Positions 8,174 to 64,000 of a DNA stretch of 64,000 nt are shown one piece after another. This DNA comes from Eledone cirrhosa (taxonomy: Eukaryota). The notes under the pieces are model-generated. The model saw only the letters and a program-made list of their open reading frames with translations. It was not told the DNA's origin and made no database searches. Within the stretch, counting starts at the first letter, position 1, and the number at the start of each line of letters is the position of its first letter. A program made the position numbers and the translations under genes. Location of the stretch: the NCBI GenBank assembly GCA_964016885.1, contig OZ024742.1, forward strand, positions 85,374,001 through 85,438,000, in the 5' to 3' direction.

Positions 8174-8255
8174 CGTTATTCCGGGTTGAATCGGAGGTAA
8201 CCACAGTAAGTAAGGTACTCAATACATTGCAGAGTATACAAGTTTTAATGTAGAT

Positions 8256-8308
8256 GAGATTCTACAGGACTAGAACTGTTTCATTCTTTAGAAATCATCA
8301 GGAATCTC
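8256..8308 (-). ncRNA. Type I hammerhead ribozyme (intact core)
   Basis: GAGATTC-CTGATGA-t-TTCT-aa-AGAA-t-GAAACAG-ttctagtc-CTGTA-GAATCTC; triplet GUA. Confidence 0.8.
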
Positions 8309-8309
8309 T

Positions 8310-8362
8310 GAGATTCCTGATGATTTCTAAAGAATGAAACAGTTCTAGTCCTGTAGAATTTC
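8310..8362 (+). ncRNA. Type I hammerhead ribozyme (mirror copy)
   Basis: Same fold as 8256-8308, with one GU in stem I. Confidence 0.8.
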
Positions 8363-8393
8363 ATCTATATTAAAACTATATATATATATATAT

Positions 8394-8700: not shown

Positions 8701-9977
<1,277 letters not shown>

Positions 9978-10128
9978 TCAGGTTTTCAAAATGTAGTGAT
10001 AATATATCGTCACGTTAGAGATGAACAGCGTACGAGTAGGTTTGCTCAACGAGTATAAATTATATTCCAGAGAAAATGGAGAAGAGATGAATATAAAATG
10101 AAAGTGCTTTTTTTAAAAAGGAATTTAT

Positions 10129-10245
10129 TAGGTATTGACATATGTTTCTGTAACAGACAGAATACCTATGTATCGCTGCTTGCGTAATCATATAATGTTA
10201 GCAAGTATTCGATAGCAAATGTATAATCAGTTGTCACTTCTTCAG
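10129..10245 (-). ncRNA. HHR-like motif in PLE terminal repeat (mirror copy at about 12817-12933, +)
   Basis: CTGAAGA-a-GTGACA..TGTTAC-a-GAAAC-ATAT-GTC. Stem I next to the core is unconvincing; the 3' strand AATACCTA instead pairs with an internal TAGGTATT. Confidence 0.4.
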
Positions 10246-11006
10246 AGATATTGGATAAATTGGAAAAAATCAGAAAAGTTGAAGTATTTATATTAGTTGT
10301 AATAAAGGAAGGAGAGAGGGGATAGTATATGACAGATGGCAATTCAATTCACTGGTAAACAAGTATATAGAAGGTTTCTAATGAGAATACAATGAGTATA
10401 TGGCTTATTTTATCTAAATAAGAATTTTTGGGAGTGCCTATTTTAATCTATACTTGACCAATTGAACAATGGACAGGGCTGGTCCTTTGGTGTAGTAGTA
10501 TTAATAGATATAAAGTGTCAATTAAGGAAGAGTGAGATTTTAACTGACACTGTATAACAACACTGCTGGTAGCATGCTGGTATATTCATTAGGGAATTGA
10601 ATTAAGAAATCTCATTTTATCTATAGCAGTTTATATTAAATGGTAAAAAATAGAAGAATTGACATAATTAAGACTAATAGAGAATGTTAATATGTATTTT
10701 GACAATCAAACGGAGATGGAGACTCGCGATCAATCCTGGTAGCGTTTGTAATATGAAAATGTATATTTCAAGCGATGGTTACAGTATAACGATCGCTCTA
10801 TTCTGGTTATTTATATGCGTAACTAATAGGAGCGCATCGTCACGGTAGATTCCACCGTGGAGATCCTTGAATTTTCCTTGTAGTCTGTGGGTGATATAAA
10901 TTCCCACAAGATCAGTTACTACCGCCGAATCATTGGAACCCATAGTAATATCAAAATTAGAAGCTCTATCTTTGCGAACCCAGTAGCTATCATCAAATTT
11001 AACAAT

Positions 11007-12333
11007 AGGGTTCGCAAAGATAGACCTTCTAATTTTGATATTACTATGGGTTACGGTGGAATCTACCGTGACGATGCGCTCCTATTAGTTAAGCATATAC
11101 ATAACCAGAATTTAGAAAGGATGCGTAAAAATATCAGAAATATTTTTAAGGAACTAGGATTAAATATTACATTTGAATATAACCTCAAAGAGGTTAATTT
11201 CCTTGATGTTACTTTGAATCTCAATACAGAAACGATTAAACCGTTCCATAAACTAAATGAGAACCTTAAATATGTAAATACGAGTTCTAACCATCCACTC
11301 TCTATAATTAAATCCATCCCTAGAAATATTTCCCTTAGACTCTCCCGCCTGTCGTCCAACCAGCAAACCTTCAAAGAACATGCCGAATATTATGATGATG
11401 CAGTTAGGAAGGCTGGACACCTAGATAATATAGAGTATATAGACGACGATCACCAAAACACCCAAAATAAATCTCATAGAGGTAAAAATAGCATAGAATC
11501 ACCACCATACATACACTACCGCAATAGACACACTAATAGTCGCACACCACCAAACAGAAGGCGATGTAAAGAGTATATATGGTACAACCCGGTCTATAAC
11601 AGCTCTATTAAAACCAGTCTACCCTCACAATTCTTTCGATTAGTTAAAAACACTTTCCAACATCACATAAATATAATACAATCTTAAACCCTAACACTAT
11701 TCGACTTTCATATTCAACCGCCCCTAATATTGAACAACATATAAAAAAGCTTTACGCAAAACGGTTGTATAAACGCCTTCCAACACATAACAATACACGT
11801 AAAACATCAGCTATAACATCACAAAACAACAAACAACATCCCGTCCTACCTAAGCAACGTGATCAACCCATCCATGCCAATACAACAACGCAAAATTATA
11901 ACTGTAACTGTGTCCAACCAGGAATGTGTCCGTTGAACAATCAGTGTCTTGAACGTAACATCATATACAAATGTACTATCGAATCAGATAGCCAGAACTG
12001 GTACTATGTGGGGTCTACAGCCACCTCCTTCAAATCTCGCCTTTATAGACATCGTTACTCGATGAAACATGAAAACCAGCGTTATGTAACAACACTTGCA
12101 GACAAGGCTTGGCAGCTGCGCGAAAATAAACAACAATTTAACCTAAAATGGGATATAATAGTGTCTGCCCCTCCATTACCCAGGGACAGGAATTTTGTAA
12201 ATTGTGTAATATGGAATTATTTTGTATTATAAAATCCAAAAATATTTTATTAAATAACAGAATAGAGCGATCGTTATACTGTAACCATCGCTTGAAATAT
12301 ATATTTTCATATTACAAACACTACCAGGATTGA
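11007..12333 (+). pseudogene. PLE RT (motifs 4-7, thumb) plus GIY-YIG endonuclease, frameshifted
   Basis: FDITMG, GIYRDD, VNFLDVT, SNHP, IWYNP, CNCxxxxxCPLxxxC linker, NIIY..YYVG, CKLC..E. Confidence 0.9.
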
Positions 12334-12978
12334 ACGCCTGTCTCCATCTCCGTTTGATTGTCAAAATACATATTAACATTCTCTATTAGTCTTAATTCTA
12401 TCAACTCTTCTATGCTTTACCATTTAATATAAACTGCTATAGATAAAGTGAGATTTCTTAATTAAATTCCCTAATGCATATACCAGCAGGCTACCAGCAT
12501 TGTTGTTATTCAGTAGCAGTGAAAAATCTCCCTCTTCCTTAATTGACACTTTATAATTAATACTACTACACCAACCGACCAGCCATTTCCATTGTTCAAT
12601 TGGTCAAGTATAGATTAAAATAGGCACTCCCAAAAATTCTTATTTAGATAAAATAAACCATATACTCATTGTATTCTCATTAGAAACCCTTTATATACTT
12701 GTTTACCAGTAAATAGAATTGCCATATGTCATATACTATCCCCTCTCTTCTTCCTTTATTACAACTAATATAAATACTTCAACTTTTCTGATTTTTTTCC
12801 AATTTATCCAATATCTCTGAAGAAGTGACAACTGATTATACATTTGCTATCGAATACTTGCTAACATTATATGATTACGCAAGCAGGGATGCATAGGTAT
12901 CCCGTCTGAGACAGAATCATATGTCAATACCTAATAAATTCCTTTTTAATAAAAGCCATTTCATTTTATATTCATCTG

Positions 12979-13093
<115 letters not shown>

Positions 13094-35032: not shown

Positions 35033-36378
35033 TAACAGATTAAGGTTTAAGCAAATAATCGCTGATTTCACCCTTAACGGGATCCCACGCAACGCCTGTA
35101 CCCGCACGCATACGATTATATACACAAAATACTCAAATATATATATATATGTGTGTGTGCATGTATACATATAATTAAATAAACGTGTATAAATAAATAA
35201 ATACGTATATAACAAGCGCACACACATACCTACATGTAAATACACATATTTTCGGAGATGTAGGTCAACCAAAACACAAAGTACACATATACCCACATCC
35301 TACATACGTACGAACACGCTTACGCACACAGACGCAAAACTCACGTATACAAAACCAAAAGCACATGTATTAGAAAATATAATATATACGCCAAAACATA
35401 TACAATCAAATATAGGTACGAGCAAGTTTACGTACCTTCACAAAATATACAGGTAATATATACTTACCTATGCAAATAAGTAATGGTATAAACATAACAT
35501 ATACTTAGCTACCACATCAAGACGTAAAAAATCCGCGTATAGTTCGTACTATCCATTAGGGTATAATGTGGGGCTGTAATACAGGAAAGTATTGTGCAAT
35601 TTATGTTTACAAGCCGAAATTGCCTCAGATTTTTTGTTTAAGAAGTGGTCTTTGGCGTAGTGTATTTCCAGGGCCTCAGCGGCTCAGATGTTACATGGTC
35701 TTTTATTTCCGTTATACGATCTAACCCTAGCTAGGATCTTCCAGTGTAACTTATATTGGGTGTGGTTGTCTTTTAGACTCCAGATATAAGCTGAAAGTGA
35801 CGTCATATTCATTGTTGAAGGGTTACGAAAAGACTGGGTATGAATGTAAAGACGCTGCTTGAATCTATTGGCCGTAAACCCTATGTAGGCCCCACGGGAC
35901 GTGGTTGTTTCAACCTTAAATTGGTAGACGATGTTACTAGAGAGGCATTTCCCCGACAGGGGGCAGTCAACCCGATTCCTACAATTTCAGTTAGTACTAA
36001 CTACAGGGATGCACGTGTTTCTACGGCTAGGTGTTTAGCTAAATTTGAAGCTGTGATGTTATGTGCAAGGCTAAGAGTCGTAGAGTAAGACATTTTAGTA
36101 GTATTTCTATTAAACATGTTACTATATTTATGTGTAGGGGGAACATGCTTCATAATAAGGGAGAGAAAGATCATAGCTAATGGTGTGGCCACCTCCATAT
36201 TATATGGTGGGTTATACCATATAATGCGTCGGGATCTATTTCGTCTAGTATATTCTCGTACTCTGTATATGCTACCTTATCGACAAATCCACTCCGAGCA
36301 AGAGCTTCATTGTAATATGTGGAATGGTCGTCGAAAATATGCTCGTGAGTAGATAGACGCGAAAGCCTCAAAGAAACG
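35026..36378 (-). mobile_element. Inverted 3' portion of the adjacent PLE (thumb, GIY-YIG, 3' UTR)
   Basis: Reverse complement of about 38215-39610 plus the repeat tail matching 36728-36790. Confidence 0.9.
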
Positions 36379-36490
36379 GATAGCCAATGGTTTTCTGAAT
36401 GTCTTTAATTAAACATACGGTATATTGCCAAATATATTATACATACATTCATTTATGCATCGCATTTTCAAAGCACAGGTCCTAATTCCA
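36379..36490 (+). mobile_element. Mini-element F2, copy c (3' part of block A)
   Basis: Diverged match to 34865-34975; fused directly to the inverted PLE arm. Confidence 0.7.
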
Positions 36491-36536
<46 letters not shown>

Positions 36537-36541
<5 letters not shown>

Positions 36542-39409
36542 TAAAATAGCAGATTAAATTCCATTACCTCTGCATATTATTTACTTTATTCTTAACTCTG
36601 AAGCCGAGAATCATTCGGTTTCCTAGTTAGAATTCTAGTCTACGACTTCAGTTATAACATTTACGTAGTTTTGATTTGCGTGCAATTTACTTCTGCGTTC
36701 ACAGATTAACTTTGTTACTTTCAGAAGATCCCGTTAAGGGTGAAAGCAGCGATTCTTTGCTTAAACTTTAATCTTTTATTTTAATAAATATTTGCTCTAC
36801 GATTCATATATATATTTGATATATATTTATCCTCATCGAGCCCTCTTTCGATTTTAGTCTTCAAATTTATTATTATTACTATTTGGCTCCCTCGGTTGAG
36901 CACTCTGTTGACTTATATTCATCATGCAGAAACATCATTTGAATATTTCTACAAAGAACATACCAAGCAGGAAAACATACCTAAAATTCCTGATACAGAA
37001 AACAGACGCGTTCATTCAAAGGTTGCGTTGGCGTGCCTTTTATTTCGATAATCAGGGAAAAGCAGACAACAAACAGGATAAATTTGGGTTTAAAACCTAC
37101 AATAACCGTCCGAGTAACCTAGCATTGCTACCCTTCGAACATGATGTCTTGGAACTCATACGGAGTATCAAATTTCGGAATATGAGCGATTTCTTCCAGC
37201 AGGACCCGAAGATTAGAATTCGTTCTATTAAGGATTCTAATGCCGTGCACGTCCATTCCGACACAATTGGCAATCTATATCAAGTGGAGCGCAGTTCTTA
37301 CCAGCAACTGCTGCATAATGCTGTAACTAAGGATTACCGTAAATCTAATCGGAGCGTCATAAATGAAATCCACGATGCTGGGTTTAAAATCACCTCTGAT
37401 CTCAACATCCTTGACCGCAATGAACGTCTGGACGTTTTCTCTCCGCACTTTACCCTGAAGGATCGCAAACCCAATTTTCCGAACAACCCCTCGATTCGGC
37501 TTGTTAAACCTACGAAGTCCGATTTAGGTAGACTTAGTAAAAGGATTCTTTATAGAATTATACCTGAAATTAAAAGTTTGGCCCCCCTTGCAGTGTGGAA
37601 CAATTCTTTCGCGGTGATTGATTGGTTCAACGGCATATGCAGCAAGAGACACTGCCGTTTTATCCAATTCGACATCAATAATTACTACTCCACCATCATT
37701 TTACCACTTCCCCTTAGAGCTTTCAATTTCGCTAAAACACTCACAGTGGTTAAGGATTTCGAAGTTGATGTCATCCTCAATGCCTGTAAGTCGGTGATTA
37801 ATTTCGACGACTCTATTTGGATTAATAAACCTAATAGTACCCCATTCTACGTGAGTATGGGCGCCAACGATTCTGCGGAGGTTACTGTTCTTATAGTCCT
37901 TTTCCTTCTTTTCTCTATCAAGGAAGAATTTCCAACGTTGGCGGTGGTTTGTACCGTGATGATGGTCTTTTGACCATGACTAAGTGCGGCCCACGTGCTT
38001 GCGACAGGTTCAGAAAAGAACTCACAGCCTACTTTAAAGGCTTCAACCTCTCCATACAGGTTGAGGGCAACCTCTCGGTCGTTAATTACCTCGACGTTAC
38101 CCTCAATTTATCGAATGGCTTGCATTACCCGTATAGAAAGCCAAATGATACGCTTAACTACATAAGTAAGCATTCCAACCATTCTGCCAGCATAACCAAG
38201 AACCTGGTAAGAAACGTTTCTTTGAGGCTTTCCCGTCTATCTACTAACGAGCATATTTTCAACGACCATTCCACTTATTACAATGAAGCTCTTGCTCGGA
38301 GTGGATTTGTCGATAAGGTAGCATATACAGCGTAGGATAATAGACCTAGAAGAAATAGATCCCGACGCATTATATTGTATAACCCACCATATATTATGGA
38401 GGTGGCCACACCATTAGCTATGATCTTTCTCTCCTTTATTATTAAGCATTTTCACCCTACACATAATAGAAAATTTTTTAATAGAAATACTACTAAAATG
38501 TCTTACTCTACGACTCCTAACCTTGAACATAACATCACAGCTTCAAATTTAGCTAAACTACCTAGCCGTAGGAACACGTGCAACCCTGTAGTTAATACTA
38601 ACTGTAATTGTAGGAATCGGGTTGACTGCCCCCTATCGGGGAAATGCCTCTCTAGTAACATCGTCTACCTATTTAAGGTTGAAACAACCACGTCCCGTAG
38701 GGCCTACATAGGGTTTACGGCCAATAGATTCAAGCAGCGTCTTTACATTCATACCCAGTCTTTTCGTAACCCTTCAACAATGAATATGACGTCACTTTCA
38801 GCTTATAACTGGAGTCTACAAGACAACCACACCCAATATAAGCTACACTGGGAGATCCTTGCTAGGGCTAGATCGTATAACGGAAATAAAAGACCATGTG
38901 ACCTCTGCTCCGCTGAGGCCCTGGAAATACTCTACGTCAAAGACCACATCTTAAATAAAAAATCTGAGGCAATTTCTGCTTGTAAACATAAATTGCACAA
39001 AGCTTTCCTGTATTACAGCCCCGCATTAGTACGAACTATAGCGCGGATTTTTTACGTCTTGATGTAGTAACTAAGTATATGTTTTGTTTATACCATTACG
39101 TATTTGTATAGGTAAGTATATATTATCTGTATATTTTGTGAAGGTACGTATACTTTCTCGTACGTATATTTGATTGTATATGTTTTGGTGTATATATTAT
39201 ATTTTCTGGTACATATGCTTTTGGTTGTGTATACGTGAGTTTTGCGTCTGTGTGAGTAATCGGGTTCGTACGTATGTAGGATGTGGGTATATGTGTACTT
39301 TGTGTTTTGGTTGACGATGTCTCCAAACATATGTGTATTTACATGTAGGTAGGTGTGTGCGCTTGTTATATACGTATTTATCTATATACGTTTATTTAAT
39401 TATATGTAT

Positions 39410-39445
<36 letters not shown>

Positions 39446-47983: not shown

Positions 47984-48170
47984 AAAGAAAAAAGATGAAA
48001 TCGAAAATGCAACTGGAGTCTTATTTTAAAAAATATGCTTTTCAAAAGTAGAGTTGACATGGAGGGCCTGTGGTTTTTCTCACATCAGATGTGAGTAAAA
48101 CCACAGACCCTCCATCTCAACTCTACTTTTGAAAAGCAGAAGAACTGCGAAACCGGTAAAGGAACCACAT
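47984..48170. mobile_element. Fold-back of the tail of the 54893-56877 PLE family
   Basis: Palindrome centred on CTCACATC-A-GATGTGAG (about 48086); GAAACCGGTA motif in the right arm. Confidence 0.8.
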
Positions 48171-48184
48171 ACATATATATATGT

Positions 48185-48850
48185 ATATATATATACATAC
48201 ATGGTCACATATATATATATGTACGTAAGGATTCACCGAACATTTATTATAATGCACGGTGTGTTTGTAAACAAACATCCCGTAGTAAGCCGTAGTGTCT
48301 AGCAACCATCGTATATACATATACATACTACTGTACGTATGTATACATATATGTATGTACGTGTACATACTTATATTTAAGTAACAGCCGTACTAAGAGT
48401 GGGAAATGAAATTTCGTTTTTTTTTTCCGTTTATCGTTTTCGGTGCACCCGGCCGATTAACCCACTCGATATGCAAATTGGGCTACTCATTCGTTAATAT
48501 GCATTAGGTAAGTATATACGTTCAACAATCTGGCAGGAATGTATACGTTGCTGACGATAGCTAATAAGCTTGAAACTAGTACAACGTTCCTTTGTCAGTG
48601 TTGAACAAACGAGCAACGATGGTTGCTAGACACTACGGCTTAATATTTGATGTTTGTTTATAAACACACCGAGCTCTATAATAAATGTTCGGTGAATCCA
48701 TACGTACATATATATATATATGTGCATGTATGTATATATATATACATACTACTGTACGTCTGTATACATATATGTATGTACGTGTACATACTTATATTTA
48801 AGTAACAGCCGTACTAAGAGTGGGAAATGAAATTTCGTTTTATTTTTTCC

Positions 48851-48856
<6 letters not shown>
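48185..48856 (+). mobile_element. Retrozyme-like element: about 1.3 units of a 421-bp monomer plus inverted arm
   Basis: 48320-48434 repeats at 48741-48856. 48185-48312 is the reverse complement of about 48616-48745. Confidence 0.85.
48521..48605 (+). ncRNA. Intact minimal type I HHR with extended stem I
   Basis: ACGTTG-CTGACGA-t-AGCT-aata-AGCT-t-GAAAC-TA-GTA-CAACGT (48545-48587). Outer helices GGAA/TTCC, CTGGCA/TGTCAG and TTCAACA/TGTTGAA. Confidence 0.88.
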
Positions 48857-48937
<81 letters not shown>

Positions 48938-48942
<5 letters not shown>

Positions 48943-49105
48943 CTGAGGTTTTTTACAAAGTGAAAAAATTAAAACGAGGTGTCATGCACGAGTGAATGTA
49001 TAAAGAAAAAAGCTGAAATCGAAAACGTAACTGGAGTCCTTTCTTAAAAAAATATATATATTAATGTGGTTCCTTTACCGGGTTCGCAGTTCTTCTGCTT
49101 TTCTC
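48938..49105 (-). mobile_element. 3' tail fragment of the 54893-56877 PLE family
   Basis: Reverse-complement match to 56725-56877. Confidence 0.7.
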
Positions 49106-53073: not shown

Positions 53074-54000
53074 CGCTTTTCAAAAGTTGAGTTGAGATGG
53101 AGGGTCTGTGATTTTTCTCACATCTGGTTGGTCTCTGAATGTTACTTGTTTTATGTGGAAAAAGTGGCTCGAAATGCCAGGTTTTTCGAGAAGTAATTTG
53201 ATTGGTTGGTCAATAATTATAATAAATTTCGTGCCAGTTCGCGTTACAAAGTTCTTCAAACAGGGGGGGGGGGGGGGGCTGTCACAGGTTGTTTTTTTCA
53301 TATATGTGTGTTTGAATTTCTTTTTACTTAAAAAAAGGGGGCTCACGAAGGTATTTTTTTTAATAAACGGAATTTGATTGGTTATAAATGAAATAATGGC
53401 TGTCACGTGAACAAGTTTTCATTAAATTTTCGCGCCCTTATTTGGAAATCCATTCTGTAGCCTCTGTAGAGAATTTTATGACAAGTAAAAGATAATGGTC
53501 AAGAGAAATTGGATGGGAGAATTGTTCTGGTTCAGTGAATATGGTTAGTTCGCTGGGGTGTCAGAATTCAGATTTTCTATTGAATAAAGAATGTAAAGAT
53601 ATGTATGTTTATTTGTGTGCTTGTGTGTGTGTGTGTGTGTGTGTGCGTGTGTGTGTGTGTGTGTTGATGTGTGTGAGTTGTGTGTGTTTTAATTTCTTTT
53701 TACTTAAACAAAAGGGGCTCACGAAGGCTTTTTTTTAATAAACGTAATTTGATTGGTTATAAATGAAATAAATTATGGCTGTCACGTGAACAAGTTTTCA
53801 TTAAATTTTCGAGCCCTTATTTGTAAATCTAATCTGTAGCCTTTTTAGAGAATTTTTTGACAAGCAAAAGATAATGGTCAAGAGAAATGGGATGGGAGAA
53901 TTGTTCTGGTTCAGTGAATATGGTTAGTTCGGTGGGATATCAGAATTCAGATTTTCTATTGTAGTAAAGAAAGGAAAGATGTGTATGTTTATTTGTGTGC

Positions 54001-54205: not shown

Positions 54206-54308
54206 TATATATTTATTTTATTTTATATATATATATTTATATATATATATATATATAAAATAAAATAAAATAAATAAGTCAAATGTTTAAAATTTGGCTT
54301 CGTTTATT

Positions 54309-54361
54309 ACTGCTATATATTTCGGTGACAGCCATCTTTGGCTGTGACCTCTTCAGGCAGT
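54309..54361 (-). ncRNA. Intact type I HHR (left arm)
   Basis: ACTGC-CTGAAGA-GGTcACAGCCA-aaga-TGGCTGTcACC-GAAAT-AT-ATA-GCAGT. Confidence 0.85.
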
Positions 54362-54667
54362 CCGAATTAGTGTGGTAGAGACGAGTACACATGTTGTTGA
54401 GGTGTATAACTTTGCCAATACTCCGATATACCCAGTTGCTGGTTGGGTAGTTATTTCACCGAGGAACTGGAATCATGAATTCAAACAAACGAATTTCAGC
54501 GTTTTTTTTGTTTTGTTTTTTTTTACGCTGAAATTCATTTGTTTGAATTCATATGGTTCCAGTTCCTCGGTGAAATAACAACCCAACCAGGAACTGGGCA
54601 TATCGGAGTATTGACAAAGTTATACACCTCAACAACATGTGTACTCGTCTCTACCACACTAATCCGG

Positions 54668-54722
54668 ACTGCCTGAAGAGGTCACAGCCAATGATGGCTG
54701 TCACCGAAATATATATAGCAGT
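54668..54722 (+). ncRNA. Intact type I HHR (right arm)
   Basis: ACTGC-CTGAAGA-GGTcACAGCCA-atga-TGGCTGTcACC-GAAAT-ATAT-ATA-GCAGT. Confidence 0.85.
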
Positions 54723-54892
54723 AATAAACGAAGCCAAATTTTAAACATTTGACTTATTTTTTATTTTAATTTACATTACTCCGGAGTAACCAAACCAACC
54801 TGCGCACTTCGTCGAGTGTTCCAATCTGCATACTGAGGTGTTAGTATACAACCAACATATAGTAAAAAATATATATATATATATATATATAT

Positions 54893-61485: not shown

Positions 61486-64000
61486 TAGCAAATGCCTCCC
61501 CCCTCCATTGGACGGTGTTAGTTCTCGGTAGGACTACAGTCTTAATGATGAAATTCCGTTTTGTTGATGTTTAACACGGAGGATAATTTTACGTAATCAA
61601 CTCTTTCAATCAAAAATGAGACGGTATTCAAAATGAGCATGTTTTATTTACAGATATCTGTCATTACAATGTGAAAATAGAGATATATCGAAAATAGAAA
61701 ATAGAGAAAATTGGAAATATCGTTTGGAATGTCATTTAATTGATTGAATGGCTGAAGAATCGATACAAAAAGCATAGACGACAGTTCGGTTGACATGAAG
61801 GCAATCTGTAAGAAACTAAATGTTTAATTGAATTATGAAATAACCTGGGGCATTTGGAAAGCTGTCCATTGAAATGGAAAAATGGTTGATTTCATCAATG
61901 GGCATTTGTTGGAAGAGTAACATTACCTATTGTGAAAAGTAAGTAATCGCAATAAGGATCAACCTGAGGGGGCTTTCAACTCCACGGAAAAACTATTGGA
62001 GGGCTGCCTTGTAAACCACATGTGTTGTCAATCTTCCGGGAGCGTAGTAAAAGAGATTGGCCGAGTTTCCAACTCTTGAACATCCTACATACAGTTGTCC
62101 GTGTGAAAAGCATGGTGTACTGAGGTCCAGCCCAACCACTTTTAGTGACTGCCCCTGGGCTTTGTCAATGGAATGGGGGAATTGGACTCTTTTCATCGAA
62201 AAGACACAGTCAGTTGGAATAAGTAGAACTCTGGAAATAAAAACAGAGTCGCCAGCGCCTTTTCCCGTAATGATTTGTAGCCTCGAGAACGTCATCCAAC
62301 ATTTGTGTTATAACCAAGCGTGTGCCATTGCAAAGCCGAGGAGGTTGCAAGTTTCTCAAGAGTATGATGGGACTTCCAAGTCTTAGGCAGAGTTTATGCG
62401 GTGGCATTCCCGGTGGCTCTTGTAAGTTTAAAAACTCTGTTGGATAAAACGTTACTTGCGTCGTATCCGTAATCGAATCAATCGAAGCATAACATAGCTC
62501 TTGGGAAGGAAGTTGACGAAACAGACATGTGTTAAGAGCTTGGACGGTGGCATTTGTAGGAGTTAAGATGGCCCTTTCACACATCCATTGATGACTGACG
62601 TAATCTGTTGAGAGGTCGGGGTAAACTCTTGTGCAAATGTCCACAAGGATGGAGACGTAGTTACCGATGGTCCTTATGTCAACCAAACCGTTTACCTCGA
62701 TTGGTAAGTTCCCATTACCAACATCCAATAACTTTGAAGCAAAGTAATTATCACCGTCTTGTTGGTAGAGAATCGATCGCATGTTGATGGTTAACTTTCT
62801 TGACTGGACGAAGCGCCAAAGATCAGAATGTTTAATGCAAGCATCTATTTCATCAACTGGTTGGCCTTTTGGGACAATGGGAAGCGTTTGACGGAAATCC
62901 CCAGCAAGAAACAGAACGACGCCACCGAACGGTTTAGAGTTGGAACGCAGGTCTTGTAGCGTTGGATCGATTGCATCAAGTGCATTCTAGTGGGACATTG
63001 TTGCCTCGTCCCAGACATTCAATTTGCATTTTTGAAAGACAGCAGCCTCATCAGAATTAATCTTTATATTGGTGGTCAGATTTTCAACATGACCGATGTT
63101 AAGGGAAGCTTAAATGTTGAATGGACTGTTCTGCCGCTGTCTAGCAGTGTTGCTGCTATTCCTGAAGACGTCATTGCAATGGCAATCTGTCCAGGTTGGC
63201 GAACTTTAGCAAGCAGGGGGTTGAGGAGAAATATCTTTCCTGTGCCACCTAGTGCATCAAGGAAGTGGATGCCACCGCTGGTGTCTTCAAGCATGGTCAA
63301 AGCAAAAGTATAGACATCAGCTTGTTCAACATTCAAAAGTGTTTCTCTTTCTTGAACGTAGGACAGAAGCCTGGCAGCATCGTAGCATGTATCCCTTAGT
63401 AGGGGGCGGTTACAAACAGCCTCATTTTCTCTTTTAGGGGATTCCATACAGTAGTTCTTCAAGGGACGGCCACCCATTTCCAAAAGTATAAGTATATCTT
63501 CTAGAAATATGAGACCGCATGTGTACATTTCAGCTGTAAACTGTAAATTCATGTGTGTAGACGCGAAGCAAGATTGCATTAGGATGTCCAAACATATGCT
63601 GTCGCGATATTTCTCCCAGAAAGACTGTGGATTCTCAAGACTGCAGTATATGAGCATAACGGCGAAAATCTTACGAAGAGCAATTGGTGACCGCAACATT
63701 GATGCTTCATGGAGGGCGTTGTCATAGTGGTTATCATTGTCGAGAAGACCTAATTTGGAGCAGGCCTCCTTTTTAAATGTTGAACAAATATGGCCATTGA
63801 CGGAACGAAGGTCTTCAACGAAAGTTGGACCTTTGACAACGTGCAATAAAAGACGAAAGAATAGAAGGTGAAAGCATTCTGAATTGAGCGGGTTAACTGT
63901 GTACACTCTTGAGAGGGCATCAGACTCACGCATCCAAGCATCCCTTTGTGAAATGCGTCCTCGCTTTCTTCTTTGAAGATTTATTTCACGTGTAGAATGT
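61485..64000 (-). mobile_element. Decayed autonomous-type Helitron, continuing past the window end
   Basis: 3' CTAG|T at 61485 with an imperfect hairpin at 61501-61515; Rep/helicase remnants upstream. Confidence 0.92.
61993..63960 (-). pseudogene. Helitron RepHel PIF1-family helicase, frameshifted
   Basis: RLLLHVVKGPT, GGTGK, SSGIAATLL..GRTVHSTFKLP, VWDE, FGG..AGDFRQ, LLRNL.PPRLCNGTR, KAQGQSL..FSHGQLYVGCSRV. Confidence 0.95.

Follow-up and report, generated by a model that had tools for sequence, protein, structure and literature searches.

A repeat element at about 48180–48856 of the 64,000-nt window (the whole stretch of Eledone cirrhosa DNA analysed here; contig OZ024742.1, positions 85,374,001 to 85,438,000) is, with a probability of about 0.85, a dispersed, high-copy, non-coding hammerhead repeat that was inserted by the RT-endonuclease of a Penelope-like element (PLE), probably of the (TA)n-targeting Hydra type. 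The element belongs to a non-LTR retrozyme family with thousands of copies. An internal 28-mer of the family has 6,335 exact matches in the 3.0-Gb genome, compared with 0 for the control. The family consensus, derived from 85 full units, is 420 nt long; sampled copies show an average divergence of 2.4%, and the unit lengths of the subfamilies range from about 420 to 540 nt. The GC content of the unit is 35%, and the direct arm of the window copy is about 4% off the family consensus.

Structure of the element and its hammerhead motif

The features of the element are as follows, in window coordinates.

About 48180–48856: whole element, inverted arm plus direct arm
48180–48312, minus strand: inverted arm, a 5'-truncated second copy (unit about 307–420 plus 1–17)
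48311–48856, plus strand: direct arm, 546 nt, 1.30 units of the 420/421-nt monomer
48311–48434, plus strand: terminal redundancy, first copy (second copy, 48732–48856)
48471–48478, plus strand: octamer ATGCAAAT, kept in a 68%-identical sister family
48520–48606, plus strand: type I hammerhead domain (core, stems and long interrupted stem I)
48551–48557, plus strand: core CTGACGA
48558–48571, plus strand: stem II, five-step, with U.U at its base
48572–48575, plus strand: GAAA
48576–48579, plus strand: stem III, 1 bp (C-G), with palindromic CTAG loop
GTA, plus strand: predicted cleavage after A48581
48791–48800, plus strand: site B (CTTATAT/TTA), the family's second fixed 3' end, through which the direct arm reads
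48798–48856, plus strand: PLE-type 'tail' from site B to site A, 56–59 nt, its exact length in the direct arm being blurred by TA microhomology
48857–48936: (TA)n target tract, right border of the element

The preliminary description of this locus proposed a 421-nt unit copied 1.3 times, with a terminal redundancy of about 115 bp and no ORF, and all three points are borne out. The 546-nt direct arm equals 1.30 units; the direct repeat at 421-nt spacing extends ungapped over 116 nt at 97% identity, and BLAST aligns 48311–48434 with 48732–48856 over 125 nt at 97.6%. No ATG-started frame in the element exceeds 63 aa, the longest running through TA-rich DNA, and an ORF with RT plus GIY-YIG, the criterion for an autonomous PLE, is absent from the element. 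The inverted 5' arm is also recovered, pairing with 48616–48748 over 133 nt at 91% identity and adjoining the 5' end of the direct arm, although it starts at about 48180 and not at 48185. Its outer end is atypical in that it stops at unit position 17, while most such arms reach site B (about 66–69). This end was likely eroded by the loss of DNA lying between TA-rich stretches, a setting in which small deletions occur often. The direct arm finishes at site A (CCGTTTAT), a regular end for the family. A TA-like tract at about 48167–48180 flanks the left end of the element, and no target-site duplication is readable at its borders. The element sits in its TA tract amid pieces of another repeat family (48036–48182 and 48911–49103), a nested insertion into (TA)n; the flanking family recurs at 53075, 54951 and 56686.

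The hammerhead core pattern has 31,960 matches genome-wide, including those in sister subfamilies, compared with 6 for the reversed control, and the predicted plus-strand fold beats 100 of 100 shuffles (z = -5.4 for the whole unit and -3.3 without the TA-rich part; the minus strand gives z = -2.1). Thus, the hammerhead core is present beyond chance. Ten of the 34 ribozyme pairs are changed on both sides, a count that none of 500 shuffles reaches and that exceeds all slid controls, and 92% of the cells in the ribozyme alignment are paired. The alignment holds 8 sequences that stand for about four lineages (subfamilies and the sister family of 68% identity) and that also served to draw the structure; the covariation therefore supports, but does not prove, a kept ribozyme fold. 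Compensatory changes of this kind would indicate selection on the ribozyme somewhere in the cycle. Variants in the catalytic core number 24 of 930, against 850 of 24,853 elsewhere, a depletion that is not significant by eye. Rfam gave 108 matches in the 64-kb window at E ≤ 1, none of them a hammerhead and all of them noise from hairpins and TA repeats.

An intact hammerhead, the best in the window, was initially described at this locus. The long interrupted stem I is seen at 48520–48606, and the core and stems are in place. However, stem III has a single base pair, stem II carries the U.U, and a G>T change at 48540, private to the window copy, breaks one pair of stem I. The U.U at the base of stem II is a trait of the family, being present in 60 of the 60 motifs listed (some of these loci overlap), and the 466-nt sister family has G-C at this place. 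With two other core-complete motifs present, at 54356 (minus strand) and 54673 (plus strand), the ranking as best in the window is not established. They lie one per arm in a fold-back of another non-coding family (54253–54870), whose stem III is made of (TA)n and which has a one-sided tail. A short near-perfect palindrome at 8241–8377 carries a hammerhead core on both strands. Elsewhere in the window, a PIF1-like helicase fragment lies at 62210–62986 (minus strand), which we take to derive probably from a Helitron.

In axolotl, HHR_Amex1 has a 1-bp helix III with a palindromic tetraloop and HHR_Amex2 has U.U at the base of helix II (PMC7229834). Dimers of the axolotl repeats with weak monomer ribozymes are cut efficiently, and circles accumulate (PMC7229834). 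The ribozyme of the window family combines both weak features; it is predicted to have little activity as a monomer and to cleave as a dimer. In that case, only loci with two tandem ribozymes would yield monomers; at least two ribozymes are found in 34 of 163 family arms. In Xenopus, 8 of 9 predicted retrozymes showed no in vitro cleavage (bioRxiv 10.64898/2026.07.22.740005). The window locus has one ribozyme, so a 421-nt monomer would not be released from it by double self-cleavage. Under the definition of an 'active' retrozyme given in the same preprint, at least two consecutive ribozymes, it is a monomer and not an active retrozyme. The window copy is best read as an ageing, slightly decayed dead-end product.

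The octamer ATGCAAAT, kept in both the main family and the 466-nt sister family, is possibly part of a candidate internal promoter, such as would be expected of a newt satellite-2-like snRNA-promoter repeat. Among 12 distinct upstream regions of host U1 genes, none contains it, the displayed matches having E ≥ 0.08. By eye, two upstream elements recur among the host U1 genes (L258–L277), the distal one GAWTTAYYTCCCTTG-like and near -260, the other AAANTCAGT-like and near -60. A possible intron enclosing the ribozyme, with GTAAGT at unit 198 and CAG at 288, was considered and rejected: no spliced genomic copy was seen, and the donor is not conserved in sister subfamilies. Contigs from four sequencing runs report presence only, with a few low-depth pieces in two other organisms, and are not counted as evidence. 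A metagenome scan with the ribozyme pattern gave 0 matches.

Insertion ends and the route into the genome

We mapped the ends of family copies at 165 loci, merged to 105 regions. The final set comprises 163 arms in 102 regions, each at least 60 nt long, at least 84% identical and not touching the locus edge, with 4 tandem-duplicate arms dropped. The 3' ends of 86 of these arms lie at unit position about 125 (site A) and those of 60 at about 66–69 (site B), together 146 of 163. The two sites are about 57 nt apart, and both are joined to (TA)n. The other 17 arms have their 3' ends at different positions, 7 of which fall within the TA-rich first 50 nt. A subset picked by the internal 28-mer, not by its ends, gives the same picture (67 of 77 at A or B), and exact junctions across the genome number 1,942 for A-(TA) and 1,359 for B-(TA). 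The 5' ends scatter across the whole unit with no fixed boundary. The 466-nt sister family (about 68% identical, L103:6300–8001) ends at the equivalent of site A.

The two sites are also paired. Among 48 head-to-head pairs, 8 have an unclassified end (the window copy is one of these), and 38 of the 40 classifiable pairs join an A arm to a B arm (p = 1.5e-9 against 50%). All 16 junctions listed from chromosome 1 are likewise A+B, some of these insertions being shared with the set of 40. The joints between arms overlap by 1–8 nt in 23 of the 48 pairs, are blunt in 7 and carry 1–19 extra bases in 8; the remaining joints show longer overlaps of 14–60 nt. A start hairpin shared 3' of both ends was also considered and rejected by eye, a small bulged hairpin being drawable after B and none alike after A.

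The same rules apply to the ORF-bearing PLEs of this genome. Two ORF-bearing PLE families of the window, with 73,068 and 58,201 candidate matches genome-wide, both end at two sites joined to (TA)n. All 9 loci (of 50) with a readable upstream inverted arm and direct end follow the A+B rule. Two broken Hydra-type PLE copies with inverted arms lie in the window, at 9972–12982 and at about 35150–39424; the former obeys the A+B rule, with a tail on its inverted arm and none on its direct end. An intact 713-aa copy has a C-terminal GIY-YIG, DKT, a CxCX5C linker, RWR instead of RWK and a (TA)n target. By the motifs read in this sister copy, the PLE family at 36.9–39.1 kb, a candidate helper, has Hydra-clade traits. 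Copies of this family occur with (L172, L184, L193) and without (L167–L171) a stretch starting GCATAG/GTAAGT just after the ORF, and on this comparison intron-retaining and spliced copies have apparently both been inserted. Pfam named none of the five PLE fragments in the window.

Sharing its end rules with ORF-bearing PLEs and showing published PLE traits, the footprint of the family implicates a PLE enzyme. The connection with PLE machinery that was drawn at the outset is thus strengthened by the fixed 3' ends, the (TA)n targets, the random 5' truncation and the A+B arms. No homologous autonomous end was found in the two Hydra-type families (50 loci), which have only motifs of about 20 nt in common with the repeat; the enzyme is therefore assigned by footprint only, and the helper is left unnamed.

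In the proposed route, the enzyme would cut both strands of a TA tract and prime a cDNA on either side of the break, at A on one side and at B on the other. Each cDNA would be extended backwards along the RNA to a random stopping point, and the two would then be joined head to head, in most cases via 1–8 nt of microhomology. For the window copy, the A-primed strand would have run 546 nt through an uncut or re-joined ribozyme site, leaving the 125-nt redundancy, and the other strand about 130–190 nt, giving the inverted arm.

This route alters the reading of the terminal redundancy, which had been taken as a sign of copying from a circle. A fixed start plus a random stop yields a terminal repeat, here the overlap of the fixed 3' start (unit 125) with a chance 5' stop, and the redundancy does not decide between circle and multimer. 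The junction at 48311 had been treated as a unit boundary, but it is not biological, and the sole candidate circle junction is the ribozyme cut site. Crossing of the unit junction by other copies, a check put forward with the original reading, is routine among mapped family copies.

Two other accounts of the repeat were weighed against insertion of an independent retrozyme. It is improbable that the unit is a mere truncated terminal repeat (pLTR) of a protein-coding PLE, with no life of its own. The shared end rules would fit such an origin, which has been proposed for Xenopus retrozymes (bioRxiv 10.64898/2026.07.22.740005), but the unit runs straight into the next unit up to 60 times, the 5' ends lack a fixed boundary where an ORF would attach, and the subfamily units vary from about 420 to 540 nt. 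We regard as more improbable still a satellite or fold-back DNA element that spread at the DNA level and carries a chance or dead ribozyme motif. The one-sided polarity (fixed 3' and random 5' ends), the A+B rule, the covarying ribozyme and the same ends even on a 60-unit array all count against it; the DNA-level expansion of long arrays in 4- and 5-unit higher-order blocks and the lack of an Rfam hammerhead match speak for it.

Family arrays reach 60 units, and mosaic arrays of 15–60 units are present. The longest (C21:33,955,909–33,981,736; L031–L036) spans 25 kb and has an A end plus an inverted, B-ended arm. It is a satellite born from one insertion; its 4- and 5-unit higher-order blocks and recombinant units rule out a single rolling-circle product. 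Four other arrays (L090, L103, L099 and L246) have a two-unit period in part or whole, and in three of them alternate units in a stretch carry a ribozyme lesion. These lesions affect the stem II base, the GAAA core and the loop III palindrome. A dimer circle behind the two-unit-period arrays is only a lead, since the outer units suggest in-place duplication instead.

Circle or multimer as the template

Passes ending at most 5 nt from the ribozyme cut number 1 of 236, where about 4 are expected by chance, and 1 of 127 when the long copies picked by BLAST are left out. A cleaved linear monomer as the usual template is rejected, as no 5' ends pile up at the cut (0 of 167 at 271–275, and the 1 of 236 passes). 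The absence of a stop indicates that the template spans the cut site, as a circle and an uncut multimer would alike.

The sequence relations among units bear on both. The two arms of one insertion diverge by 2.1%, compared with 4.5% between different insertions. At subfamily-diagnostic sites, adjacent units agree at 22 and differ at 42, the two arms agree at 35 and differ at 33, and different insertions agree at 11%; these counts include tandem duplicates, and some of the sites may be mutation hot spots. Private variants are common to both arms in only 5 of 42 two-armed insertions, and they recur in the neighboring unit in only 9 of 79 adjacent-unit pairs. In several arms, units belonging to different subfamilies meet at switch points other than the cut site. 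Gene conversion makes mosaics after insertion, as a tandem duplicate at C1:19.62 Mb demonstrates, and the long arrays grew by DNA-level duplication; both processes weaken the circle and multimer readings alike. RNA editing left no mark in the form of an A>G strand bias (50 vs 48).

We give nearly even odds to a 421-nt circular RNA, produced by ribozyme cleavage, as the main template, with the RT running round it. Apart from the lack of a stop at the cut, this is favored by two young two-armed insertions (C1:50.60 Mb and C1:9.97 Mb), in which 9–10 near-identical passes extend over both arms and rare variants are shared across them, although a young homogeneous array would yield identical passes too. 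The lower divergence between arms of one insertion than between insertions also favors a circle. The efficient cutting of axolotl dimers (PMC7229834) suggests that long uncut multimers might be short-lived. On the other side, the disagreements at diagnostic sites and the scarcity of shared private variants speak against a pure monomer circle, many arms combine units from more than one subfamily and change between them at points other than the cut, and the window locus has a single ribozyme. Such mosaic adjacent units are what an uncut linear multimer transcribed from tandem loci would leave, with mosaic arrays of 15–60 units as possible sources and the ribozyme not needed for insertion. PLE RNA with a dead ribozyme is inserted normally in vitro, where unprocessed RNA serves as the main substrate (PMC11167929). 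We consider this template a real contender, though at less than even odds: gene conversion after insertion can make mosaics, as at C1:19.62 Mb, and the compensatory changes imply selection on the ribozyme. That the circle and multi-unit RNA routes operate equally seems unlikely.

A fuller version of the circular-RNA reading can be offered tentatively. A Hydra-type RT dimer may copy a small RNA circle repeatedly from both sides of the break, using two hard-wired starts, one per side, with cleavage setting the template size. If so, the arrays with a two-unit period in which one ribozyme is crippled would be traces left by dimer circles, and both the life cycle of retrozymes and the strand-specific use of the two PLE start sites would be readable from the genome.

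Comparison with known systems

The family resembles the metazoan non-LTR retrozymes described in PMC7229834 in its non-coding tandem unit of a few hundred nt, its low GC content, its type I hammerhead in each unit, its thousands of copies and its highly paired predicted fold. It differs in a slightly longer unit (420 nt) and is known here from genome sequence alone. A link between retrozymes and PLEs was proposed by Cervera and de la Pena 2020 (PMC7229834), and Li, Clavereau and Pollet 2026 (bioRxiv 10.64898/2026.07.22.740005) describe retrozymes as non-autonomous PLE derivatives. In the Xenopus work, PLE dependence was deduced from co-occurrence and pLTR homology, whereas here it is deduced from the insertion footprint. 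Unlike in Xenopus, no homologous pLTR was found in the two PLE families tested here.

An inverted copy and a one-sided tail are PLE traits (Craig et al. 2021, PMC8557442). The family shares partial tandems, an inverted 5'-truncated copy, a one-sided tail and (TA)n targets with the Hydra-clade/EN+ PLEs of that study, and differs from them in having no ORF and a tail of 56–59 nt rather than 30–40. In Craig et al. 2021 (PMC8557442), non-autonomous Chlamys elements form head-to-tail copies and have 3' ends in common with their partner elements, whereas the present family shows no such likeness to the two tested Hydra-type families. Ribozyme motifs are absent from one supplement file of Craig et al. 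2021 (PMC8557442).

Entry of retrozymes into DNA via PLE enzymes or circles has been proposed before, and the family adds insertion-end evidence. Our search, which lay outside subscription journals, found no paper with PLE-type ends or a one-site-per-side rule for a retrozyme. With its two mapped start sites and the near-strict use of one site per side, the 420-nt unit of the family is a substrate on which both hitch-hiking and the way in which PLE inverted arms and tails arise can be tested directly. For Poseidon PAc in vitro, Frangieh et al. 2024 (PMC11167929) show that both strands are cut and that two internal RT start sites delimit the tail. The family likewise has two adjacent internal start sites bounding the tail, and AT-rich targets. 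The start site of Poseidon PAc in vitro did not differ between the strands (PMC11167929), whereas the family almost always uses different sites on the two sides of one insertion.
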